Part shown: positions 1,691 through 33,941 of the stretch, in pieces
How the letters are laid out: each line of letters starts with the position of its first letter
How positions within the stretch are numbered: position 1 is the stretch's first letter
Source: Sulfuricellaceae bacterium
GTDB taxonomy: Bacteria; Pseudomonadota; Gammaproteobacteria; Burkholderiales; UBA9220
Reading direction: 5' to 3'
Assembly: GCA_050177075.1 (NCBI GenBank)
Contig: JBFXHL010000004.1
Span: forward strand, 1 to 53,233
Length of the DNA stretch: 53,233 nucleotides
Notes under the pieces: model-generated
Seen by the model: the letters and a program-made list of their open reading frames with translations, nothing else
What the model was told of the DNA's origin: nothing
Database searches by the model: none
Made by a program: the position numbers and the translations under genes

Positions 1691-3589
1691 TTAGAACCCC
1701 ACGAATAGGTACTCTTGAACATCGTTGTTGTTATCGCCTACCTTGTGCCTCTGAGTGCCAAACGAATATTTATAATCCACTGGCACGACTTCCACATGGC
1801 GTTTGTGCTTTGCCATTATGGACACCATTTCTTCAAGCGTCGGCTGGCTATTGGATGAATACGAAACAACCAAGACGCTTTCCCGGAATCGTTTGAAGAG
1901 AAGATCAAAGGCTTCCGCGGCCCCTTTCCGAGAAGAGAAGGGCGTAGGGTAGTTCTTGAATTTTTTGGTTGCCGTATGCTGCTGAATCTCTACGCCTTGC
2001 CAGTCTCGCGCAAGCCCTTCAACAAAGTGGTATCGGCGTACATATTCGTTGTCGGAAAACGGTGAATAGTATGGAGGATCGATGTAAACCAGGCCGCAGT
2101 CCTGTTCATGTACCGTCATTGCGTCATCGTTGCGCGCCCTGTTCTGCCGGCCATTATTGAAGACGGCGCCGTTTACCACTTCCACCGCTTCGAGGAATTG
2201 GTCACGGAAAGGCATCAACAGGTCTTTTCGGCCGTCATCGTAACGATGTCCAACATAAGTGAAAATGCCACGGGGGCGCTTTTTCAGGCATGCTCGAATG
2301 AGGGCGGTCATGGCAATTCCCTGCTTATAGGGATTTCTGATCGCCTTGATGTTGGCGCGCAATATGTCAATTAAACGGTTGTCGTCATCGCCAAAGTAGA
2401 GTCCCCGGAAAGTCGTTTCGACAAAGTGGTCCACCGGCTTGCTCGGTTCCAGCAGGGCTTCCGCTTCTTCGCGTGGGAGGATCACGTCGTTGTTCTCGAT
2501 CATCGCCTTGGCAAATGTCGCGGACATTGCCATGTAGTCGTTGCTTATTACCGCTTTCCCGTGGGCTTTCAACATGTAACTGACCACGCCCGATCCCGAA
2601 AAGAGATCAACGGCCGTATCGAATTCGAACTGCGAGATAACGGTCCATATCTCCGCGAGCAGCTTGTTTTTTGATCCCATGTAACGCGTGGGCGGGTATC
2701 GGAGCAATTGCGGTGGCAGAGAAGGGACCAGTTTCAAATTGATGCTTGGTTTTGGTGGAATCGTCACAATAACGTCCTCCCCGGCCCTGCCTTTCCCGTT
2801 GCAGGAAATATAACGCCTCGTTTTTACCGCTTCCCGCTCGAACCGGCTATACAACTCATGAACCAAGGGATGTTTGGAATTCGTAAGATGGACATGGCAT
2901 CCCAAGTCATGGAGCCGCTGTACTTCATTGGCCAACTCTACATGGTCTTCCTCGTAAAATTGCTCCTTGGTGTACCGTTTAAAATCGGCATATGCCGATA
3001 TTGGCAAATAGGGCGGGTCCAAGAACACAAAATCGCCAGGTAGCGCGTGCATTCTTAATACGTCTTTATAGTCCCCATGAATGATGGTTGTTTCTCGTAG
3101 AAGCGCGGAGGCTGCTCGCAGAGCTTCTTCATCCAAAATTTTTGGATTTTTGTATCTGCCGAAAGGCACATTGAATTGCCCCTTCCGGTTGACGCGATAG
3201 AGGCCGTTGAAACACGTCCGATTCAAAAAAATTGTCCTGGCGGCAGCTTCCGTCGGTGAAAGGCAAGTCCAGTCCAAGCCGCGGGCGGCGTAAAAAGCCT
3301 CTTCTGTGTTCTGATAGCTGGCAAGGGATTCGACGACGCCTTCAACGTCATCGGCTACAGCTCGATAAAGGTTGACCAACTCGGGGTTGCTGTCGGCGAC
3401 GACAGCTCCTCGGGGTTTCAGGGCAAAAAAAAGTGCCCCACCCCCAAAAAACGGTTCTATGTAACGGCCAAATTTCTTTGGGGTTTTGGCAAGCAATTCG
3501 TTAAGAAGCTGGGTTTTCCCTCCAGCCCATTTGAGCAAGGGTTTCGTTTCCTTGAGGAACGTTGCTTGGACTTGTTCCGTCGTTTTCAT
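1691..3589 (-). CDS. Fused double Dam-family (D12 class) N6-adenine DNA methyltransferase
   Basis: Two complete methyltransferase units: KWAGGK..EPFFGGGA..DPPY and RYMGSK..DLFSGSG..DPPY. This architecture is typical of type IIS systems with asymmetric sites. Confidence 0.93.
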   Translation of the reverse strand: MKTTEQVQATFLKETKPLLKWAGGKTQLLNELLAKTPKKFGRYIEPFFGGGALFFALKPRGAVVADSNPELVNLYRAVADDVEGVVESLASYQNTEEAFYAARGLDWTCLSPTEAAARTIFLNRTCFNGLYRVNRKGQFNVPFGRYKNPKILDEEALRAASALLRETTIIHGDYKDVLRMHALPGDFVFLDPPYLPISAYADFKRYTKEQFYEEDHVELANEVQRLHDLGCHVHLTNSKHPLVHELYSRFEREAVKTRRYISCNGKGRAGEDVIVTIPPKPSINLKLVPSLPPQLLRYPPTRYMGSKNKLLAEIWTVISQFEFDTAVDLFSGSGVVSYMLKAHGKAVISNDYMAMSATFAKAMIENNDVILPREEAEALLEPSKPVDHFVETTFRGLYFGDDDNRLIDILRANIKAIRNPYKQGIAMTALIRACLKKRPRGIFTYVGHRYDDGRKDLLMPFRDQFLEAVEVVNGAVFNNGRQNRARNDDAMTVHEQDCGLVYIDPPYYSPFSDNEYVRRYHFVEGLARDWQGVEIQQHTATKKFKNYPTPFSSRKGAAEAFDLLFKRFRESVLVVSYSSNSQPTLEEMVSIMAKHKRHVEVVPVDYKYSFGTQRHKVGDNNNDVQEYLFVGF

Positions 3590-3595
3590 TGGGTA

Positions 3596-4549
3596 CTAGT
3601 TCCCCGCCAGTATGCTCATTACCGCCATGCGCACCGCGATGCCGAAGGTGACCTGGGGCAGGATCACCGACTGCTTGCCGTCGGCCACCCCGGAGTCGAT
3701 TTCGATGCCCCGGTTCATGGGGCCGGGGTGCATGACGATGGCGTCGGGTTTGGCCCGGGAAAGTTTCTCGGCGGTGAGGCCGTAGTACTTGAAGAACTCC
3801 CCGGCGGAAGGCAGGAGGGCGCCGCGCATGCGCTCGTTCTGCAGGCGCAGCATCATCACCACGTCCACGTCCTTCAGGCCCTCGGCCATGTCGTGGTAGA
3901 CGTGGACCCCCAGTTGTTCCACGCTGGTGGGGAGCAGGGTCTTGGGGGCGATGACGCGGATTTCCGGCACCCCCAGCACGTTGAGGGCGTGAATCTCGGA
4001 CCGCGCCACCCGGGAGTGGAGGATGTCGCCGACGATGGCTACCCGCAGGCGGGTGAAGTCCTCCTTGTAGCGGCGGATGGTGAACACGTCCAGCAGGCCC
4101 TGGGTGGGGTGGGCGTGGCGGCCGTCGCCGGCGTTGACCACGTGGATGTGGGGCGCCACGTGGCGGGCGATGAGGTGGGCGGCGCCGCTCTGGGCGTGGC
4201 GCACCACGAACATGTCGGCCTGCATGGCGGAAAGGTTGTCCACCGTATCCAGCAGGGTCTCCCCCTTGGAGGTCGAGGACGAGCCGATGTTGAGGTTTAT
4301 GACGTCGGCGGACAGGCGCTTGGCGGCGATTTCGAAGGTGGTGCGGGTGCGGGTGCTGTTCTCGAAGAACAGGTTGAAAATCGCCTTGCCTCGCAGCAGC
4401 GGCACCTTCTTCACCTCTCGCTCCGCCACGGTGACGAAGGATTCGGCGGTGTTGAGGATATGGGTCAGGATGTCCCGGGGCAGTCCCTCGATGGAGAGCA
4501 GGTGGTGCAGTTCGCCGTTGGCGTTGAGCTGGGGGTTGTACTTCTTCAT
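3596..4549 (-). CDS. pyrB: Aspartate carbamoyltransferase catalytic subunit
   Basis: Motifs [16 protein letters not shown] and MHPGPMNRG. Confidence 0.98.
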
Positions 4550-4553
4550 GGCG

Positions 4554-5057
4554 TCATTCCGTGGCGATGCCGTGGAGGCTCAGGTACAGCCTGCCGGAGC
4601 CGGTTTGGTTGAGCTGGATGTTCTGGTTGTGAGGCAAGGGGATGGTGGCGCCCACCACCTGGGCGGCGATGGGCAGCTCCCGCCCGCTCCGGTCCACCAG
4701 GGCCGCCAGCAGGATGCTCGCCGGGCGGCCGTAGTCGAACAGTTCGTTCATGGCGGCCCGCACCGTGCGGCCGGTGTAGAGCACGTCGTCCACCAGGATG
4801 ATGGCGCGGCCATCCACCTCGAAGGGGATGTGGGATGGCTCCACCTCCGGGTGCAGGCCGATCTGGCTGAAGTCGTCGCGGTAGAAGGAGATGTCCAGGG
4901 TGCCCAGGGGAATGGAGATGCCCAGCGTCTGGTGCAGGCGCTCGGCGAGCCAGGCGCCGCCGGTGCGGATGCCCACCAGGGCGGTTTCCGGCCCCACGTG
5001 GGGCTTGAGCTGTTCGGCCAGGGAGGCCAGCAGGTGTTCGGCGTCAGGCAGTTCCAT
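4554..5057 (-). CDS. pyrR: Pyrimidine regulatory protein / uracil phosphoribosyltransferase PyrR
   Basis: Motifs LDISFYRDD and [12 protein letters not shown]; upstream of pyrB. Confidence 0.96.
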
Positions 5058-5484
5058 GGGGCAGTCCGTCCAAATAGGTTTGCAGTATGCGTTGCGCCGC
5101 CACCTGGTCCAGCACCGGCTTCTGCTTCCTTCCCCGCAGGCCCGCCTGGTTCAGGTGTTCGCTGGCGTCGGCGGAAGACAGGCGCTCGTCCACCAGGGCC
5201 GTCTTGAGGCCGAAGCGGCCTTCCAGGCGGCGGGCGAAGCGGCGGCAGCGCTCACTCATTTCGTGTTCCGTGCCGTCCAGGTGGGCAGGCAGGCCCACCA
5301 CCAGCAGCACCGGCTGCCACTCGCCGATCAGGCGGGCGACGGCGCCGAATTTTACCTCGTTGCTTTCCCCCTGGATGGTTTCCAGGGGATGGGCGATGCG
5401 GATTTCCGTGTCGCCCACCGCGACGCCGATGCGTTTTTCCCCGTAATCGAAGGCGAGGATCGAGCCGCGAACCGGCTCAGGCAT
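5044..5484 (-). CDS. ruvX: RuvX/YqgF pre-16S rRNA nuclease
   Basis: Motifs [18 protein letters not shown] and VDERLSS. Confidence 0.96.
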
Positions 5485-6037
5485 GGCCCGCCACGTCGGA
5501 AAGGGTGGCGAAATCGACGCCCAGCTTGGCCATGGCCGCCGCCAGGCGCTCCTCGTCCGGCAGGTCGAAAATCAGCTCCGGCGAGGCCGGCACCGTCAGC
5601 CACGCGTTCTGGGCCAGTTCCTGCTCCAGCTGCCCCGCCGACCAGCCGGCGTAGCCGAGGGAGACGAGGAATTTCTCCGGCCCGGTGCCTTCGCCAACGG
5701 CCAGGAGGATGTCCTTGGAGGTGGTGAGGCCGATGTCGTCACGGATGGTGAGGGTGGATTGCCACTTCCCCACCGGCTGGTGCAGCACGAAGCCCCGGTC
5801 CATCTGCACCGGGCCGCCGAAATGGACCTGCTCCCGGGCGTGCTTCTGCACGTGGAGGGGGATTTCGATCTGCTCGAAAAGACCCTCCAGGGTCATGTCG
5901 ATGGAGCGGTTGAGGACGATGCCCAGGGCGCCGTTCTCGTTGTGTTCGCAGATGTAGGTGAGGGACTTGGCGAAATAGGGGTCCGCCATGGCGGGCATGG
6001 CGATCAGGAAATGATGGGTGAGATCGACGCTTTCCAT
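5477..6037 (-). CDS. yqgE: YqgE/AlgH family protein
   Basis: Motifs FLIAMP, GGPVQ..RGFVLH and [13 protein letters not shown]. Confidence 0.96.
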
Positions 6038-6089
6038 AAGTTCGCTAATTATGGCATAGGGCGAGGGGGGAAAAAACCGCGCCGGCGTT

Positions 6090-6980
6090 TTACCGGGACT
6101 GCAGTTGGTCCGACTTGGTGAACATCCAGGTGCGGGTGATGCTGATCACGTCGTACTTGCTGCGGATGTCGGCGGAAAACGGGGCGTAGGGGGCGGCTAG
6201 GCGGACGATGCGCAGGGCGGCCTCGTCCAGCTCCTTGTGGCCGGAGGAGCGGTTGAGCTCGATGTCGCGCACGCTGCCGTCGGCGTTGATTTCCACCGTC
6301 AGCCGCAGGCTGCCGTAGAGCTTCTGGCGTTTGGCCTCCTCCGGGTAGTTGAGGTTGCCCACCTTTTCCACCTTCATGCGCCAGTCCTCCAGGTAGCGGG
6401 CGAGGACGTATTCCTGGGCACTGGCGCCGACGAAGGCCTTGCGCGGGCGCTTGTTGTAGGCGTCCATGTCCTTGTCGATCTGGGCCTGCAGGCGGGCGGC
6501 GTCGAAGCTGCTCTGGAGCAGGTCGGCGGCGTTCACCCGCGGGGAGGGGGAGCTCTTGCGGCTGGAGCGGGCCGTTTCCACCTTGTTGGCGGAGCGGATG
6601 TCGCTCGCCAGGCGGCGGGCCTGTTCTTCCAGTTCCTGCACCCGCTGCTGTTTGCGGGTCACGGCGGCGTCGCTCTTGCTGTCGTCCAGCACCGGCAGTG
6701 GGCTCTTGGCGTGGCGCTCCGTGTCCACCGTGCCGCCGCCCTCCAGGTTGGCCTGGGCGTAGGTGTCGGAATGGCTGGGACGGGTGGCGGACTTCTTGTT
6801 CACCAGCACCACGTCGATGGAGTGGGCGTCGGAGGGGGCGAATTTCGGCGTCGGCAGGCTGAAGCCGACACCGAACACCAGGAGCAGATGGAGGAAGAAC
6901 GACGCGACCAGCATCGTTTCGAAACGCTTGGCCGGGTCGAGGCGGGAGAAGAAGTCGCCGCGCGGCGGGGTCACAGTCAT
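6090..6980 (-). CDS. Energy transducer TonB family protein
   Basis: N-terminal transmembrane helix with SxxxH, and a TonB C-terminal domain ([17 protein letters not shown]). Confidence 0.85.
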
Positions 6981-19974: not shown

Positions 19975-21093
19975 TCATTTGCCGCGCCCCCTCGGCAAGC
20001 GCATGGCGCCGTCCTCGAAAGTGCCCTGTTCGGCGTCCAGGTGGCAGGCGGCGCAGTTGGCTTTCGACGTCACCTTGGGGTTGCGCCAGGTTTCCGGCGG
20101 GATGCCCCGGTGTTTCTTTTGCCAGTAGGGCGTGTCGGTGATGCGCAGCGGCGCCTCTCCGGCGGGGACGGAACGGTCGATTTTGTAGGCCGCCTCGGTG
20201 AGCTGCCGGTCGGCGGCGTTGTTTTCCAGGAAGGCGAGGATTTCCCGGGTGGCGGCGGCATCGAGGCCGAGGGTTTCGCCGAAGTGATTGTCCTGCTCGG
20301 CCATCATCCGCCGCCAGGAGCGGGCGGGGAGCAGGGAAGGATGAAAGGCCAGGTGGCAGCTGCCGCATTCCGAGCGCCAGACCTTGTTGTCCGGCAGGCT
20401 CGGACCGACGAAGGGACGGTAGGGCTGCTGCGGAGTCTCCTGAAGATAGCCCTTGAAGTACCAGACCCCGCCGGCCAGGACCAGGGCCAGCAGCAGCATC
20501 GCGCTGAAACGGCGGGGGGAAGCGGCGGCCTGGGTCGCTTCCCCCTCCTTGCACCCCGTGACCATGGCCTTGGCCAGGTTTTCCTTGTGCAGCAGGCTTT
20601 CCACGGCCACGCTGGCGAGGTGGAGCCCCACCAGGGCCAGCATGGCGGAGGCCAGGCCCTCGTGCAGTTCCTTGAAGGCATGGCCGAGGCCGTAGGACAG
20701 CAGGCCGGCGAAGGGGCCGTGGTTTTCCTCTCCGCCCAGGGTCAGCAGGCCGGCGAGGCCGACGGCGACGGCCAGGCCGAGGAGGCCGTAGATGGCCCAG
20801 CTGCCCGCCGGGTTGTGGCCGATATGGCGTGCAGCCTTGCCGTGCAGGGTTTTCCCCAGATAGGCGATAGCTTCCTTCGGACTGAAGCGGAAGGAGGCGA
20901 AGCGGGCATAGCGGCTGCCGATCACCCCCCATAGGAGGCGGAAGGCCACCAGGCCGAGCATCAGGTAGCCGGCGAAGACGTGTACCGCCAGCCAGGCGTC
21001 CGATTCGGCGGTGAGCCAGGCGACGGCGAAGGCGGAGGCCAGCAGCCAGTGGAACAGGCGGGTAGGGAGGTCCCAGACGAGGATTTTCTGCAT
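19975..21093 (-). CDS. Cytochrome b/b6-type protein fused to a diheme cytochrome c (DHC) domain
   Basis: Start reassigned to the ATG at 21093 (MQKILVWDLPTRLFHW). Contains GHNPAG, then C-terminal CGSCH and CAACH heme motifs. Confidence 0.9.
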   Translation of the reverse strand: MQKILVWDLPTRLFHWLLASAFAVAWLTAESDAWLAVHVFAGYLMLGLVAFRLLWGVIGSRYARFASFRFSPKEAIAYLGKTLHGKAARHIGHNPAGSWAIYGLLGLAVAVGLAGLLTLGGEENHGPFAGLLSYGLGHAFKELHEGLASAMLALVGLHLASVAVESLLHKENLAKAMVTGCKEGEATQAAASPRRFSAMLLLALVLAGGVWYFKGYLQETPQQPYRPFVGPSLPDNKVWRSECGSCHLAFHPSLLPARSWRRMMAEQDNHFGETLGLDAAATREILAFLENNAADRQLTEAAYKIDRSVPAGEAPLRITDTPYWQKKHRGIPPETWRNPKVTSKANCAACHLDAEQGTFEDGAMRLPRGRGK

Positions 21094-26778: not shown

Positions 26779-27354
26779 CTATTCCCCGGCTTCGTTGGCC
26801 GCCGGGAAAAGCTCGGTGATGGCTTTTTTCAGGGTCTTGACCATTTCAGGCACTTCGATGTCCATGATCTGGTCGACGATCCAGCTCTTGTCCTGCTGCG
26901 GCAGTCGATCCATGATGCGCAGGCCGAGATAGCGGACGAAAGCGAAATCCGGCCCGTCCTCGGCATACCCGAAAGTGGCGTAGTCATCGGCCCGCTCGTT
27001 GAGGCGGGCGATGAACTGGCCCTTGTAGTCGGCCGTGGTGTCCACCCCGGGGACGTCGAGCACGTTGTCATGGAGGATTTCCCCCAGGCGGTTGGCCAGG
27101 GCGGTGACGAAGGCGGTGCGCTGTTCGAGGGAGAATTTCTCGTAGGCCATGCGGTCGGCGAGCTGGATCAGGAAGTAGAGTATCTCGGCGATGATGGCGT
27201 AGCCCTGGGCCGGGTCGGTGATGCGGTAGCCTTCCTTGCGCAGGTTGCCGATGGTTCCCGAGGCCAGGCGCCAGCAGATCAGCGCCACCACGCTGGCGGA
27301 CTGGGCGCTGTCGCCGGTGTGGGCGGTGTTGTGCCACTGGGTCTTTATTCGCAT
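26779..27354 (-). CDS. Conserved hypothetical protein
   Basis: Start reassigned to the ATG at 27354 (MRIKTQWHN...), overlapping the sulfurtransferase stop; typical codon usage and globular composition. Confidence 0.75.
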   Translation of the reverse strand: MRIKTQWHNTAHTGDSAQSASVVALICWRLASGTIGNLRKEGYRITDPAQGYAIIAEILYFLIQLADRMAYEKFSLEQRTAFVTALANRLGEILHDNVLDVPGVDTTADYKGQFIARLNERADDYATFGYAEDGPDFAFVRYLGLRIMDRLPQQDKSWIVDQIMDIEVPEMVKTLKKAITELFPAANEAGE

Positions 27355-28214
27355 AGCAGCCCCGTTTCGCCGGTTTCGACGGGCCGGGAGGGATCGGTGA
27401 TCCACTCGCTCCAGGAACCCGGGTAGAGCAGGGAGCCGGACAGGCCGGCATGCTCCATGGCCAGGATGTTGTGGCAGGCGGTGACGCCGGAGCCGCAGCT
27501 GTGGATGACGCGGCTGGGGGGAACGTCGCCGAGGATGTTGAGATAGATCTCGCGCAGTTCCTCGGTGGGCAGGTAGGTGCCGTCCAGGTCGAGGTTTTCC
27601 TCGAAGGGCCAGTTGAACGTGCCGGGAATGTGGCCGGCTACCGGGTCGAGGGGTTCCACGTCGCCGGTGAAGCGCATCTCGGGACGAGCGTCGAGAACCT
27701 TCCACCGTCTGTCTCGGCGGGCGGCGTCCACTTGGGAAACGTCAACCCACAGGGCGCGATGGGGCGTGGCGTGGAAGACGGCGGGGCGGATTTCCGGCGG
27801 GGCGGCGGTCACCGGCCGCTGTTCCTTGTTGTGCCATTTCGGGTAACCCCCGTCCAGCAGCGCGACCTTCTCGTGGCCGAGCCAGCGCAGCAGCCACCAC
27901 AGGCGCACCGCCATGGCGCCGAAGCTGTCGTCGTACACCACCACCTGGCTGTCGGCGCTGACGCCCCAGCGGCCCAGTTTCTCCGCCAGGACGTTCGGGT
28001 CGGGCAGGGGGTGGCGGCCGGTGGTTTCGGTGGCCGGCGCGGACAGGTCTTCGTCCAGGTGGGCGTAGCGGGCCCCGGGGATATGGCCGTGGGCGTATGC
28101 GCGGCGACCGGCCTCAGGGTCGGTGAGAGTGGTGCGACAATCGAACACGATCCATTCCGGGTCGTCCAGATGGGCCGCGAGTTCGGAAGTGCTGACGAGA
28201 GTAGTGAATTTCAT
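27345..28214 (-). CDS. Two-domain rhodanese / SseA-type sulfurtransferase
   Basis: GHIPGA, GRHPLP, active site CGSGVTAC and YPGSWSEW. Confidence 0.95.
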   Translation of the reverse strand: MKFTTLVSTSELAAHLDDPEWIVFDCRTTLTDPEAGRRAYAHGHIPGARYAHLDEDLSAPATETTGRHPLPDPNVLAEKLGRWGVSADSQVVVYDDSFGAMAVRLWWLLRWLGHEKVALLDGGYPKWHNKEQRPVTAAPPEIRPAVFHATPHRALWVDVSQVDAARRDRRWKVLDARPEMRFTGDVEPLDPVAGHIPGTFNWPFEENLDLDGTYLPTEELREIYLNILGDVPPSRVIHSCGSGVTACHNILAMEHAGLSGSLLYPGSWSEWITDPSRPVETGETGLLCE

Positions 28215-28230
28215 GGCCGTCCAGAAAAGG

Positions 28231-28259
28231 AAAAAGCCGGAAACCTGGCGGTTTCCGGC
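28231..28259 (-). terminator. Intrinsic terminator of the cas6/DsrC-like operon
   Basis: 10-bp stem GCCGGAAACC-TGGC-GGTTTCCGGC followed by U5 on the minus strand. Confidence 0.8.
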
Positions 28260-28280
28260 CGTGGTAGGCCGGGAGTCCGG

Positions 28281-28613
28281 TTAATAGCCGCCTTTGCCGA
28301 AGGGCTTGGGCAGGCCGGCGATCTTGGCGGACTGACGGTTGGGCTGCATCGGGAACAGGCTGTAGAGGTGCTTTTTCCAGTCGGTGCCGGGGTGCTCTTC
28401 GTCGAAGTCCTTGCACATATTGCGGAAGTTTGGGGTGTGGCCGTCTTCCTTGTACTTCTCGCGCATGTAGTTGATTACCAGCCAGTGTTCATCGGTGAGC
28501 TTGATGCCTTCGGCTTCGGCGATCACCGGCGGCACGTCGTCGCTGTAGTTGGCTTCGACCAGGAAACCCTCGTCGTCCACTTCCAGCTCTTCACCGTTAA
28601 CAACATAACCCAT
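28281..28613 (-). CDS. TusE/DsrC-family protein lacking both conserved C-terminal cysteines (RspA-like)
   Basis: DDEGFL..LTDEHWLVINYMR..LFP..QSAKIAGLPKPFGKGGY, compared with QACKIAGLPKPTGCI in the true DsrC at 33609. Confidence 0.88.
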   Translation of the reverse strand: MGYVVNGEELEVDDEGFLVEANYSDDVPPVIAEAEGIKLTDEHWLVINYMREKYKEDGHTPNFRNMCKDFDEEHPGTDWKKHLYSLFPMQPNRQSAKIAGLPKPFGKGGY

Positions 28614-28685
28614 GGTATTTCCTCCTTGCTAATTGCCAGTTGATTACTCGGCCAATGGCGGAAGCCGCCGGCCACTCTTTGAAAA

Positions 28686-29327
28686 CTACCCCCCGACGGG
28701 GGCGAAGGACTTGTGGGGCACGAAAAGTCCGCACCCCAGTTCCCGATGCATCCCCAGCCCCGTTTCCTGCAGGGCGATGGATTGCTCATCGGTCAAATTG
28801 TACAACGCTAGGCTGTAGGTTGTGATCTTGCCGCCGGCGCTGTTGAGTACGTGGGCCTTGCCGCACACCATGCGGCAAGGGATATTGCGCGTCTTCAGCG
28901 CCTCCTGGATGTCGGCGGCGAAGTCGGCTTCCGCCTCGTGGCCGGTGGTCACGTAGTAGGCGTGGATGGCGCCGTAGGGCATGAGCTCCTTTTCCTTCGG
29001 CTTGCCGACGGTGACGGCGTGACCGCCCAGGTCCAGGGTGGCGCCGACCAGGCCGTGCAGGCTCCCGGCTTCCTCGCGTCTGACGCGAAGGGTCAGGTTG
29101 GCGCGCCGGGACAGGATGATGGTGTCGTTTTCCGTTACCGAGCCGCGAATGGGGTGGACGCCGATATCCGTCCTGCCGGCGAGCCGGGGCAGGACGCGAA
29201 CGATCTCCGCCCACAGCAGGTGGCCGTGGTCGAAGGGGATCTCGCGCCCGTCGAGGTGGAAAACCACGTCCACCGACGCGGCGACGACGGGGGTGTCGTC
29301 CGTGGCTGGCCAGTACTCTTGCGTCAT
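28686..29327 (-). CDS. cas6: Orphan Cas6 (type I-MYXAN Cas6/Cmx6-like RAMP endoribonuclease)
   Basis: Start at the ATG at 29327 (MTQEYW), overlapping the upstream stop (ATGA). Contains VDVVFHLDGREIPFDHG (His motif), GVHPIRG, L.LRV, G..LDLGG and the C-terminal G-loop LQETGLGMHRELGCGLFVP. Confidence 0.85.
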   Translation of the reverse strand: MTQEYWPATDDTPVVAASVDVVFHLDGREIPFDHGHLLWAEIVRVLPRLAGRTDIGVHPIRGSVTENDTIILSRRANLTLRVRREEAGSLHGLVGATLDLGGHAVTVGKPKEKELMPYGAIHAYYVTTGHEAEADFAADIQEALKTRNIPCRMVCGKAHVLNSAGGKITTYSLALYNLTDEQSIALQETGLGMHRELGCGLFVPHKSFAPVGG

Positions 29328-29548
29328 TCTGCGGGTCCGAGGTCTTTCTGCTGCTTCGCCCAGTCCAGCATGGCGCTGGCCCAGCGTTCGGCGGTCTGCT
29401 TGTCGATGTCGAAAATGGTGAAGCGCTTGCCCTCCCGGATGCGCAGGCGCAGGGAAGTGAAGCCGGCTTCGTGGTCGACGCTCTGCAGTTCGATGTCCTG
29501 GCCGCCGAAGGGGCCGGTGAATTTGTCCAACGTGTTTGCCTGGTCCAT
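29324..29548 (-). CDS. Small conserved hypothetical protein (possibly DUF6967-like), first gene of the cas6 operon
   Basis: MDQANTLDKFTGPFGGQDIELQ..LRLRIREGKRFTIFDID..A..W; translationally coupled to cas6. The family name is from recall only. Confidence 0.7.
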   Translation of the reverse strand: MDQANTLDKFTGPFGGQDIELQSVDHEAGFTSLRLRIREGKRFTIFDIDKQTAERWASAMLDWAKQQKDLGPAE

Positions 29549-29585
29549 ATATATCAATGCCTTCCGGTGTCGCCTCCGAAGTGCA

Positions 29586-29600
29586 TACCCCAGTGGGGTT
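29586..29600. promoter_or_regulatory. Palindromic operator candidate, copy 1
   Basis: TACCCC-AGT-GGGGTT. Confidence 0.5.
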
Positions 29601-29641
29601 ATTGGCGCGAAGGGAGGGTGCCTCTAACATTCGGTCCGGGA

Positions 29642-29669
29642 ATTATAACCACGGCGGGCCGGTCTTCAA
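29642..29669 (-). promoter_or_regulatory. Sigma70 promoter candidate for the cas6 operon
   Basis: TTGAAG-N16-TATAAT on the minus strand. Confidence 0.6.
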
Positions 29670-29707
29670 TGGCCGAAAGGCCTGATAGCCTTTTTTGATA
29701 AGTTGGC

Positions 29708-29726
29708 ACTACCCCATATGGGTAGT
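29708..29726. promoter_or_regulatory. Palindromic operator candidate, copy 2
   Basis: ACTACCC-CATAT-GGGTAGT (core TACCCC-ATA-TGGGTA). Confidence 0.55.
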
Positions 29727-29790
29727 ATGCAGAGAAGGCGCTATTTGACTAGGATACGTGAAAGTGTCCGGTCTGGTGCGCGAGACGCGG

Positions 29791-29831
29791 AATTCCTCGG
29801 TTGGGCGTATAGACAGCCGAGGGATTTTTTT
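29791..29831 (+). terminator. Intrinsic terminator-like hairpin in the dsrA leader
   Basis: 13-bp stem AATTCCTCGGTTG / CAGCCGAGGGATT (two G-U pairs) running into T7. Confidence 0.65.
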
Positions 29832-29984
29832 CTCTGGCGCCCGTGGCCGAAAAACGACGAACCGCCGTTACGGCTGGCTCGATGAGGGGTGATAGGTCGG
29901 CTGCGGAGTTTTGGCGCGGCGGGCCCGGCAGGACTGGCATACCAGGATCACGCAACCGCATAAATTTTGTTAGGAGAAACCACT

Positions 29985-31286
29985 ATGGCTAAGAAAATGC
30001 ACGATACGCCAAATCTTGACGAGCTGGAAAAGGGCCCTTGGCCCAGTTTTGTGACCGGCCTCAAGCGTCTGGCCGCGGAAAACGACATGATGGTTGACCT
30101 GCTGGGTCAGCTGGAAACGTCCTACAAGACCAGGAAGGGTTACTGGAAGGGTGGTACCGTTGGCGTGTTGGGTTACGGCGGTGGCGTTATCCCCCGTTTC
30201 ACCGAGCTGAAGGACGAGAACGAGCAGCCCCTGTTCCCCGACGCCGCTTCCTTCCATACCCTGCGTATCATGCCCCCCGCCGGCATGCACTACGACACCA
30301 AGACCCTGCGCAAGATGTGCGACATTTGGCAGAAGCACGGCTCCGGTCTGATCGCTCTGCACGGCCAGTCCGGCGACATCATGTTCCAGGGCATCACTAC
30401 CGAGAACGTCCAGCCCGCCTTCGACGAGTTCAACGAAATGGGCTTTGACCTGGGTGGCGCCGGTCCCGCCGTGCGTACCTCCACCGCTTGCATCGGCGCC
30501 GCTCGCTGCGAGCAGTCCTGCTACGACGAGGGTAAGGCCATGCGCATGACCGTGAACGCCTACCTGGACGAGATGCACCGCCCCGCCCTGCCCTACAAGT
30601 TCAAGTTCAAGTTCTCCGGCTGCCCCAACGACTGCGCCAACGCCGTCCAGCGCGCCGACATGGCTGTGATCGGTACCTGGCGCGACAACATGCAGACCGA
30701 CGATGCCCTGGGCAAGAAGTGGTTCGCCAAGCACGGCATGGACGAGCTGGTGAACGACGTGATCTCCCGTTGCCCCAGCAAGGCCATCAGCCTGAAGGAC
30801 ACCGCCAAGGTTTCCAAGGGCGAGAAGATCTCCGCCGTGGCCATCAACGACAGCCAGTCCCTGGAAATCGACAACGGCAGCTGCGTCCGCTGCATGCACT
30901 GCATCAACGTCATGACCGGCGCCCTGGCCCCCGGCAACGACAAGGGCGTGACCGTTCTGGTTGGCGGTAAGCGTACCCTGAAGATCGGTGATCTGATGGG
31001 TACCGTGGTGGTTCCGTTCATGAAGATGGAAAGCGACGAGGACTACGAAGCCCTGGTGGAGCTGGCCGGCAACTTCATCGACTTCTTCGCCGAAAACGCC
31101 CTGGAGCACGAGCGTACCGGCGAGATGATCGAGCGTATCGGCCTGGTCAACTTCCTGGAAGGCGTCGGTCTGGAAATCGATCCGAGCATGATCATTCATC
31201 CCCGTACCAACCCCTATGTCCGCATGGACGGCTGGGACGAGGAAGTGGCCAAATGGAACGAGCGCCAAGCTTCCAAGACGGCTTGA
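29985..31286 (+). CDS. dsrA: Reverse dissimilatory sulfite reductase alpha subunit
   Basis: TPNLDELEKGPWPSFV, CIGAARC, YKFKFKFSGCPNDC and CVRCMHC; ATG at 29985 after AGGAGA. Confidence 0.98.
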   Translation: MAKKMHDTPNLDELEKGPWPSFVTGLKRLAAENDMMVDLLGQLETSYKTRKGYWKGGTVGVLGYGGGVIPRFTELKDENEQPLFPDAASFHTLRIMPPAGMHYDTKTLRKMCDIWQKHGSGLIALHGQSGDIMFQGITTENVQPAFDEFNEMGFDLGGAGPAVRTSTACIGAARCEQSCYDEGKAMRMTVNAYLDEMHRPALPYKFKFKFSGCPNDCANAVQRADMAVIGTWRDNMQTDDALGKKWFAKHGMDELVNDVISRCPSKAISLKDTAKVSKGEKISAVAINDSQSLEIDNGSCVRCMHCINVMTGALAPGNDKGVTVLVGGKRTLKIGDLMGTVVVPFMKMESDEDYEALVELAGNFIDFFAENALEHERTGEMIERIGLVNFLEGVGLEIDPSMIIHPRTNPYVRMDGWDEEVAKWNERQASKTA

Positions 31287-33608: not shown

Positions 33609-33941
33609 ATGAGCTTCGAAATCAACGGTAAAACCTACGAAACCGACGAAGAAGGCTACCTGGTCAACCTTTCCGACTGGAACGAAGAGGCCGCCAAGCA
33701 CCTGGCTGCCGAAGAGAAGGTGGAGCTGACCGAGCAGCACTGGGAAGTGATCAACTTCCTGCGCGAGTACTACAACGACTATCAGATCGCCCCCGCCGTG
33801 CGCGTGTTGACCAAGGCCATCGGCAAGAAGCTCGGACCCGAGAAGGGCAACAGCAAGTACCTGTACGAACTGTTCCCCTACGGCCCCGCCAAGCAGGCCT
33901 GTAAGATCGCTGGTCTGCCCAAGCCCACCGGCTGTATCTAA
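33609..33941 (+). CDS. dsrC: Sulfur carrier DsrC
   Basis: C-terminal CKIAGLPKPTGCI with both conserved cysteines. Confidence 0.98.
   Translation: MSFEINGKTYETDEEGYLVNLSDWNEEAAKHLAAEEKVELTEQHWEVINFLREYYNDYQIAPAVRVLTKAIGKKLGPEKGNSKYLYELFPYGPAKQACKIAGLPKPTGCI

Follow-up and report, generated by a model that had tools for sequence, protein, structure and literature searches.

A Cas6-Like Protein Encoded Apart from CRISPR Loci and beside the Reverse dsr Genes

Introduction

Cas6 is the nuclease that matures CRISPR (clustered regularly interspaced short palindromic repeats) RNA. A glycine-rich loop (G-loop) and residues of the Arg81 type hold the RNA in Cas6 proteins, and some Cas6-type RAMPs (repeat-associated mysterious proteins) are catalytically inactive and only bind RNA, in Cascade-like complexes. 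Here, we describe a Cas6-like protein encoded in a 53,233-nucleotide stretch of the genome of a Sulfuricellaceae bacterium (contig JBFXHL010000004.1 of assembly GCA_050177075.1; C4 in our numbering), hereafter the window. Its gene diverges from dsrA and is accompanied by genes for a DUF6967 protein and for a DsrC/TusE-family paralogue, called the KGGY protein after its C-terminal residues. The closest described relative is the Cas6 of type I-B/I-MYXAN systems (Cmx6; chain B of PDB entries 8fcj and 8fcu), which the window protein resembles in its hidden Markov model family, fold, glycine-rich loop, and Arg81. In contrast to type I-B Cas6, genes of the window type lack cas neighbors and an array, stand beside dsrA, and form a separate branch of the tree; the dsr-linked clade does not keep Tyr36 and His50 and has R75, W48, E133, H205, and K206 as new invariants. 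The inactive RNA-binding RAMPs are alike in the RAMP fold, the G-loop, and the missing conserved His. However, those proteins work inside CRISPR effector complexes, whereas the window-type protein stands with sulfur-metabolism genes.

The described relatives of the KGGY protein are DsrC, TusE, and RspA, the last being the name used for cysteine-less members of the DsrC/TusE family in PMC8477390. In Allochromatium vinosum, the roles of extra DsrC paralogues are not established according to the genome paper (PMC3368242). A search of the open literature, with subscription papers and supplementary files outside it, found no link between Cas6/Cmx6 and dsr. Papers naming both Cas6 and DsrC concern, in the parts that were checked, ordinary CRISPR loci only.

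We propose, with a probability of roughly 0.6, that a CRISPR-independent Cas6 (Cmx6, PF09559) subfamily is a standing accessory of dsr that probably binds nucleic acid without cutting it and is coupled to the sulfur relay. A CRISPR-free Cas6 subfamily tied to reverse dsr would give a clear example of a Cas protein at work in central metabolism, and its carriers include Thiobacillus denitrificans (loci L051 and L103) and two 1.1-Mb genomes. The dsr pathway, whose regulation and sulfur hand-over are still debated, gains at least two uncharacterized near-universal companions, the Cas6-like protein and the KGGY paralogue. Surveys of cas genes could also over-call CRISPR in these sulfur oxidizers, because the NCBIfam Cmx6 equivalog passes the window protein; a Sulfuricellaceae homologue (P0014) already bears that name.

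Results and Discussion

An earlier note, made from the letters of the window alone, had identified the 213-residue product as a Cas6/Cmx6 RAMP protein, and profile and structure comparisons bear this out. The protein matches PF09559 (Cas6) with E 2.9e-57 and 194.2 bits (cut-off 26.7) and TIGR02807 (cas6_cmx6) with 151.3 bits (cut-off 98.85). Compared with solved chains, a profile of 16 homologues matches only the Cas6 of type I-B CRISPR-associated transposon Cascade (8fcj_B plus five more entries; E 3.5e-35). The AlphaFold2 model, for which the same 16-homologue alignment served as input, has a mean predicted local distance difference test score (pLDDT) of 90.3. Foldseek places 8fcj_B and 8fcu_B at the top of its list for this model (TM 0.80-0.83, 26-27% identity, E 7.9e-19), and Cas6 of Pyrococcus furiosus, Thermus thermophilus, and Escherichia coli come next. 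We regard the Cas6 family membership and the double ferredoxin-like RAMP fold of the window protein as settled.

The position of the gene beside dsrA is not peculiar to this genome. The order was sampled with 61 genomes, the window genome and 60 relatives, and PF09559 is present in 16 of them. A DUF6967 gene lies directly 5' of the Cas6-like gene in all 15 other carriers, and 14 of them have dsrA as a neighbor; the remaining contig, 1.7 kb long, stops short of dsrA. Downstream of the Cas6-like gene stand a DsrC-like gene (14/15) and a rhodanese gene (10/15). The DsrA that adjoins the module in related loci is 60-98% identical. A pattern scan with one genome per species returned at least 595 relatives, and the best 80 of these were picked by likeness to the query and therefore convey breadth rather than frequency. 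Their titles are of betaproteobacterial type (Gallionellaceae, Sulfuricella, T. denitrificans DSM 12475 and strain RG), with one contig titled Moraniibacteriota. Among these best 80, dsrA is divergent in 79, DUF6967 lies directly upstream of the Cas6-like gene in 75, and DsrC-like and rhodanese genes are present in 72 and 61, respectively.

The same linkage was examined across the GTDB class of the window, which takes in organisms titled Betaproteobacteria. PF09559 was detected in 125 of 401 genomes and DsrA (E <= 1e-80) in 124 of the 400 that were scored. Both genes are present in 118 genomes, PF09559 alone in seven, and DsrA alone in six. Of the 118, 87 have the two genes divergent and 653-4484 bp apart, five have them widely separated on one contig, and 26 have them on different contigs. 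Five of the seven PF09559-only genomes (G227, G354, G192, G318, and G198) have the module in its usual form, on a contig broken off at or before dsrA, with a dsrA fragment at the break in two. The sixth (G081) holds a true type I-B locus, L162, in the order WYL-Cas6-Cas3-Cas8b-(unassigned ORF)-Cas5-Uma2-Cas4/Cas1, and the seventh (G368, an unpublished genome) is of a similar non-dsr type; these last two are counted as CRISPR-type. In five of the six DsrA-only genomes, dsrA sits at a contig end. The whole module is retained in both 1.1-Mb genomes. Because the sampled genomes are related to one another, these counts should be read as a pattern and not as a statistical test on independent cases. 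They show the Cas6-like gene to be a fixed companion of the dsr genes across the class, with near-complete co-occurrence and divergent adjacency. Of 301 genomes sampled from the phylum, two have PF09559 and 56 have DsrA (E <= 1e-60).

The Cas6-like gene is also independent of cas genes. Cas1 (E <= 1e-10) was not found in 67 of the 123 class-sample genomes with a dsr-type gene, among them six single-contig genomes and both 1.1-Mb genomes (the tally takes in the unpublished G099, G201, and G368), nor in 6 of the 16 carriers in the order (a tally that takes in the unpublished G030). None of the 15 + 80 + 20 loci that were read has cas5, cas7, cas8, or cas3 in the module. In the window genome, which is 95.7% complete, Cas8b_N, Cas5, and DevR (Cas7) were not found; no control genome matched in the Cas8b_N search, but the same Pfam model gives 244 bits on L162. 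The earlier claim that the window holds no array stands for contig C4, on which a k-mer scan for regularly spaced repeats found none, but does not extend to the genome, which has CRISPR parts on other contigs. Contig C146 encodes a Cas9 fragment and Cas1. Contig C135 (L170) carries, at ~3830-4040, a small array whose three repeats measure 37 nt (the third is degenerate) and end in ATTGAAAC; a 302-residue open reading frame (ORF) at 4210-5118 beside it has a PF10040 Cas6 match below the cut-off. An integrase and the reverse transcriptase of a group II intron are encoded on the same 5.2-kb contig. Four tandem 83-nt units (TTTTGGCTACGACATAACGTTAGCC...) occupy an intergenic stretch of contig C20 (~20700-21030); they were ruled out as a CRISPR array, there being no spacers.

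These CRISPR parts bear on one alternative, namely that the protein is a conventional Cas6 and produces mature crRNA from an array in another part of the genome. The protein does score as the NCBIfam Cmx6 equivalog, and the C135 array could be its substrate. That array, however, has its own Cas6-like ORF, the only other cas genes found are those for Cas9 and Cas1, and Cas8b, Cas5, and DevR were not found. The many carriers in which Cas1 was not found, the separation of the clade from CRISPR-type relatives together with the loss of their His50, and the quite different appearance of the true type I-B locus of the same class (L162) make this explanation very improbable. Exaptation out of CRISPR, which the earlier note had put forward, is well supported. 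The reverse direction, in which the CRISPR Cmx6 nuclease was recruited from such a housekeeping RNA-binding protein, may equally apply, since the tree is unrooted.

The relationship of the dsr-linked proteins to CRISPR-type Cas6 was examined by searching 1.84 billion representatives. The query, the CRISPR-type Cas6 of L162, retrieved 1324 relatives at E <= 0.001, or 729 when the limit was E <= 1e-10. A tree was built from 41 dsr-linked sequences and 71 CRISPR-type rows (70 listed representatives and the L162 protein); for this purpose, beta-type loci were thinned to one in three, and both gamma-type loci and representatives of 170-240 residues to one in two. As the earlier note had anticipated, a dsr-linked clade exists: the 41 sequences form one split of the unrooted tree, with a Shimodaira-Hasegawa-like approximate likelihood ratio test (SH-aLRT) value of 99.

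A comparison of alignment columns separates what the two groups share from what they do not. Both keep R81, G190, G192, R195, G198, C199, G200, and F202. The G-loop and R81 are kept at 93-100% in the dsr-linked clade. The loop positions G190, G192, G198, C199, and G200 are among seven residues invariant across 102 sequences and are kept at 83-99% in CRISPR-type representatives. The latter conserve H50 (97%), H34 (94%), Y36 (90%), R158 (91%), and G193 (95%), and the solved type I-B chain 8fcj_B has Tyr at position 36, His at 50, and Asn at 34. In the dsr-linked clade, the three commonest residues at position 50 are A, G, and E, and Y36 is kept in only 35%; the window protein has A50 and H36. 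The near-invariants of the clade itself are W48, R75, R86, E133, G156, S172, H205, and K206, and a P-[HY]-K motif occurs in 0 of 150 CRISPR-type representatives. Both signatures on which the earlier note had relied are present, IPFDHG at residues 30-35 and the G-loop GLGMHRELGCGLF at residues 190-202, yet the His of IPFDHG (position 34) is only 81% conserved in the clade and is Asn in the solved type I-B Cas6. The spacing of the lost residues, Tyr-14-His, presumably resembles that of the Tyr31/His46 pair of P. furiosus Cas6.

Canonical RNA cleavage by the dsr-linked clade is doubtful because it lacks both Tyr36 and His50. The earlier proposal that the protein processes RNA therefore finds no favor in these residues. 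On our reading, the clade appears to have retained the part that grips RNA and to have lost the part that cuts in the canonical way. The Cas6-like protein would still grip a nucleic-acid hairpin, because the GxGxxRxxGCG loop and Arg81, which are common to the CRISPR-type relatives, are kept, and it would bind rather than cut, because the conserved Tyr36 and His50 are lost. Together with the KGGY protein, and in betaproteobacteria also with DUF6967, it could couple the state of the sulfur relay to dsr expression or function. Binding without cutting, or a role at the protein level with the KGGY partner, seems more likely than RNA processing.

The Cas6-like gene might instead be a remnant in decay, left over from a lost CRISPR locus and only incidentally beside dsr. 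It evolves faster than its neighbors, with 30-64% identity across the order as compared to 52-94% for the DsrC-like protein, as a decaying gene would. The conservation data contradict this view: the reading frame is intact in all matches, the ratio of nonsynonymous to synonymous substitution (dN/dS) against the nearest relative is 0.12, which indicates purifying selection, seven residues are invariant in 102 sequences, and the gene is retained in 1.1-Mb genomes. We consider a remnant the least credible of the explanations weighed here.

The KGGY protein belongs with DsrC by profile and departs from it at the C-terminus. It matches PF04358 (DsrC; E 9.8e-32, 110 bits, cut-off 24.9) and TIGR03342 (88.8 bits, cut-off 53.5), scores below the cut-off of the TusE equivalog model (75.5 bits against 191), and shares with DsrC, TusE, and RspA the GLPKP arm. 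Its C-terminal arm in the window, AKIAGLPKPFGKGGY, ends ...GLPKPFGKGGY. In contrast to DsrC, both C-terminal cysteines are missing and the arm is two residues longer. The KGGY end is present in 120 of 121 loci, the 121 being those, among 143 with a Cas6-like match, in which both ORFs are complete and run in the same direction; the termini are GKGGY in 77, RKGGY in 43, and GKAGY in one. K107, G109, and Y110 are invariant in 103 sequences, and the last 25 residues are Cys-free in 106 of the 121 homologues. The paralogue had been called Cys-less; this holds for the C-terminal pair of conserved cysteines but not for the whole window protein, which has a single Cys at residue 67, where the consensus of the 103 sequences is V. 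The true DsrC has a gene of its own in the dsr operon (tblastn match at ~33609-33932 of the window), and its relative in L030 ends ...PTGCV.

The pairing of the Cas6-like protein with the KGGY DsrC/TusE paralogue is obligate or nearly so. It invites the explanation that no nucleic acid is involved and that the Cas6 fold serves the KGGY protein, be it as partner, as chaperone, or as enzyme, in the trafficking of sulfur or in Dsr modification, with R75, E133, H205, and K206 as a new site. The near-obligate pairing in the 121 loci, the neighboring sulfur-relay and oxygenase genes (rhodanese, TauD-like, and 2-oxoglutarate (2OG)-Fe(II) oxygenase), the loss of His50 and Tyr36, and the new invariant residues beside the G-loop are all consistent with such a role. 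Against it stands the retention, at 93-100%, of the glycine-rich loop and R81, whose known function in Cas6 is to hold RNA. We therefore hold this explanation to be unlikely, though a serious contender.

The best candidate target of the Cas6-like protein would be a conserved palindrome upstream of dsrA. In beta-type loci, it reads ACCTACCC-N4/5-GGGTAGGT; a TACCC-anchored palindrome is present in 79 of 88 betaproteobacterial intergenic regions, with a perfect 8-bp arm pair in 12. Gamma-type loci have a related TATCCC-N4-GGGATA, ~110-290 nt upstream of dsrA. The window palindrome is the sole perfect CTACCC-N4/5-GGGTAG match in the 2.65-Mb genome. A regulon-wide site was considered and rejected, as the genome has one perfect and one single-mismatch match and the latter (contig C90) adjoins unrelated genes. 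In several loci, a TTGACA-N16/17-TATTxx site is aimed at dsrA ~25-55 nt before the palindrome, which could therefore start a long dsrA leader. RNAfold, applied to 74 palindrome instances, favors the dsrA-sense strand in 49 as compared to 22. A motif-anchored count gives 36 versus 4 wobble-compatible mismatches, a count that the anchor itself biases.

Two proposals turn on this element. In the first, a Cas6-derived riboregulator, with the Cys-less KGGY DsrC as a decoy that reads the sulfur relay, would bind a hairpin in the dsr leader and set mRNA stability or translation; this specific version is tentative, and we would not expect it to be right in all its parts. In the second, the elements would form a transcription factor module: the KGGY protein, either alone or joined by the Cas6-like or DUF6967 protein, would bind the palindrome as double-stranded DNA and control both divergent promoters. 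DsrC itself is said to bind DNA upstream of dsrA, as Grimm et al. reportedly found in 2010. The palindrome, unique in the genome, is situated between the two divergent units and is conserved from the beta type (TACCC-N4-GGGTA) to the gamma type (TATCCC-N4-GGGATA); repeated TACCC boxes follow it, and in several loci the promoter-like site toward dsrA precedes it. All of this would suit an operator. However, the arm spacing varies by one base (4 or 5 nt), a variation more easily accommodated by a hairpin than by a dimeric operator, and the Cas6 fold would be left without a role. A transcription factor module is therefore distinctly improbable.

Several observations weigh against our proposal of a nucleic-acid-binding dsr accessory. 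PF09559 is absent from all 54 DsrA-positive genomes of other classes in the phylum, and the dsr system can therefore run without the Cas6-like protein. Within the class, one DsrA-only genome (G300, 92% complete) lacks the module in the 6.5 kb that lie upstream of dsrA. In the CRISPR-type comparison, which draws on 150 representatives, the one locus whose genomic context was checked is L162. Tyr36 and His50 are a presumed nuclease center, deduced from conservation and from what we take to be the catalytic triad of P. furiosus Cas6. The left arm of the palindrome is far better kept than the right, without compensating changes, and extra TACCC boxes lie downstream; this asymmetry and the boxes appear to suit a DNA operator for another regulator no less than they suit an RNA hairpin. 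With a symmetric anchor, the strand count falls to 32 versus 21 wobble-compatible mismatches, many unrelated palindromes being picked.

The earlier note had also offered the RNA of the operon itself as a target, and this part finds no support: the intergenic spacers of the operon hold no conserved hairpin. In particular, a hairpin in the spacer between the Cas6-like and DsrC-like genes was rejected as a target; the length of this spacer varies between a 25-nt overlap and 98 nt (median 48), and it shows no conservation. As a separate observation, the window spacer (28614-28685) and its counterparts in relatives often contain a G+C-rich hairpin and T run followed by a strong AAGGAGG ribosome site, so that expression of the DsrC-like gene could be uncoupled.

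The module was originally described as a three-gene unit. The genes were placed correctly and do diverge from dsrA, but the unit is one local form of a wider set that comprises genes for a TauD-like protein, a 63-residue ORF, DUF6967, the Cas6-like protein, the KGGY protein, and a rhodanese. The features found in the window are collected in Table 1. As had been noted, the DUF6967 and Cas6-like genes are coupled through an ATGA overlap of stop and start. The composition of the three genes is host-like, as first claimed, with G+C of 0.62, 0.66, and 0.57 compared to 0.637 for the window. The promoter and terminator candidates were also recovered. Sigma70-like sites number 2 in 2 kb, compared to 0.5 expected in shuffles. 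A scan of window positions 27000-31000 against Rfam at E <= 1 gave zero matches.

Table 1. Features of the Cas6-like module and its surroundings in the window
Feature	Position	Strand	Remarks
Cas6-like gene	28686-29327	-	213 aa; dsr-linked subfamily of PF09559/Cmx6
DUF6967 gene	29324-29548	-	74 aa; PF22295 match
DsrC/TusE-family paralogue (KGGY protein)	28281-28613	-	110 aa; PF04358 match; without both C-terminal cysteines
Two-domain rhodanese-type sulfurtransferase, frequent fourth gene	27345-28214	-	PF00581, E 4.4e-27, 2 matched stretches
dsrA, first gene of the divergent dsr operon	29985-31286	+	from the ORF list; followed by dsrB and dsrE
Sigma70-like promoter candidate	29642-29669	-	TTGAAG-16-TATAAT, 10/12 matches; consensus match only
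Terminator-like hairpin after the DsrC-like gene	28235-28260	-	11-pair stem (7 G-C), then T run TTTTCCTTTT
Imperfect palindrome CACTACCCCATATGGGTAGTA between dsrA and DUF6967	29707-29727	.	candidate binding site: DNA operator or RNA hairpin

The 74-residue protein matches PF22295 over its full length (E 7.4e-30, 103.1 bits, cut-off 27). Its gene overlaps the Cas6-like gene as ATGA or GTGA in many beta-type loci. In one locus, L026 (7974-8861, minus strand; genome G029, three contigs, 100% complete), DUF6967 and the Cas6-like protein form one 295-codon frame with no intervening stop; it is the only fusion among 94 checked loci with a DUF6967 match. The sequence CAAAATAGGCTGGC is kept at the DUF6967 stop (TAG) in L018, L019, L020, L024, L036, L038, L040, L046, L063, L071, L081, L085, and others. 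In these loci, the Cas6-like frame continues upstream of this string, shifted by -1 (KIGWP...), and a start codon close by is lacking in some of them. Slippage at A-AAA-TAG might conceivably give a DUF6967/Cas6-like fusion product.

Outside the beta-type loci, the divergent unit consists of genes for a TauD-like dioxygenase (PF02668), a 63-residue ORF, often a ~235-residue ORF, the Cas6-like protein, and the KGGY protein. This set was seen in L141-L160 and L183-L185, for example at 2687-3625, 3631-3828, and 3834-4580 of L146. Neither the 63-residue ORF (MLWLSE...FFRMDVKPPF.DTP..WEDRLEAAF) nor the ~235-residue ORF has a Pfam match. Three loci of other classes were read, in which DsrA is 66-71% identical: TauD-like and DUF6967 genes stand beside dsrA in all of them and the 63-residue ORF in two, and neither a Cas6-like nor a KGGY gene is present beside dsrA. 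DUF6967, which accompanies dsrA there without Cas6, is therefore a dsr-locus gene in its own right, and the Cas6-like/KGGY pair is a class-specific addition to the dsr locus. The DUF6967 protein and the gamma-type 63-residue ORF were tried as one family and rejected (hhalign probability 3.6%, E 0.012); both stand side by side in the other-class loci.

Further genes lie close to the module. Besides the TauD-like gene, 2OG-Fe(II) oxygenase genes (PF13640) are found near it in gamma-type loci (L141 at 5924-6517, L147, L150, and L159). In the window, a 184-residue ORF (MRIKTQWH...; 26779-27333, minus strand) lies just 3' of the rhodanese gene and has no Pfam match. ORFs that resemble it (MAIRIKSNW..., VRIKSKWHK...) lie a few kb from the module in the gamma-type loci L141, L142, L143, and L145.

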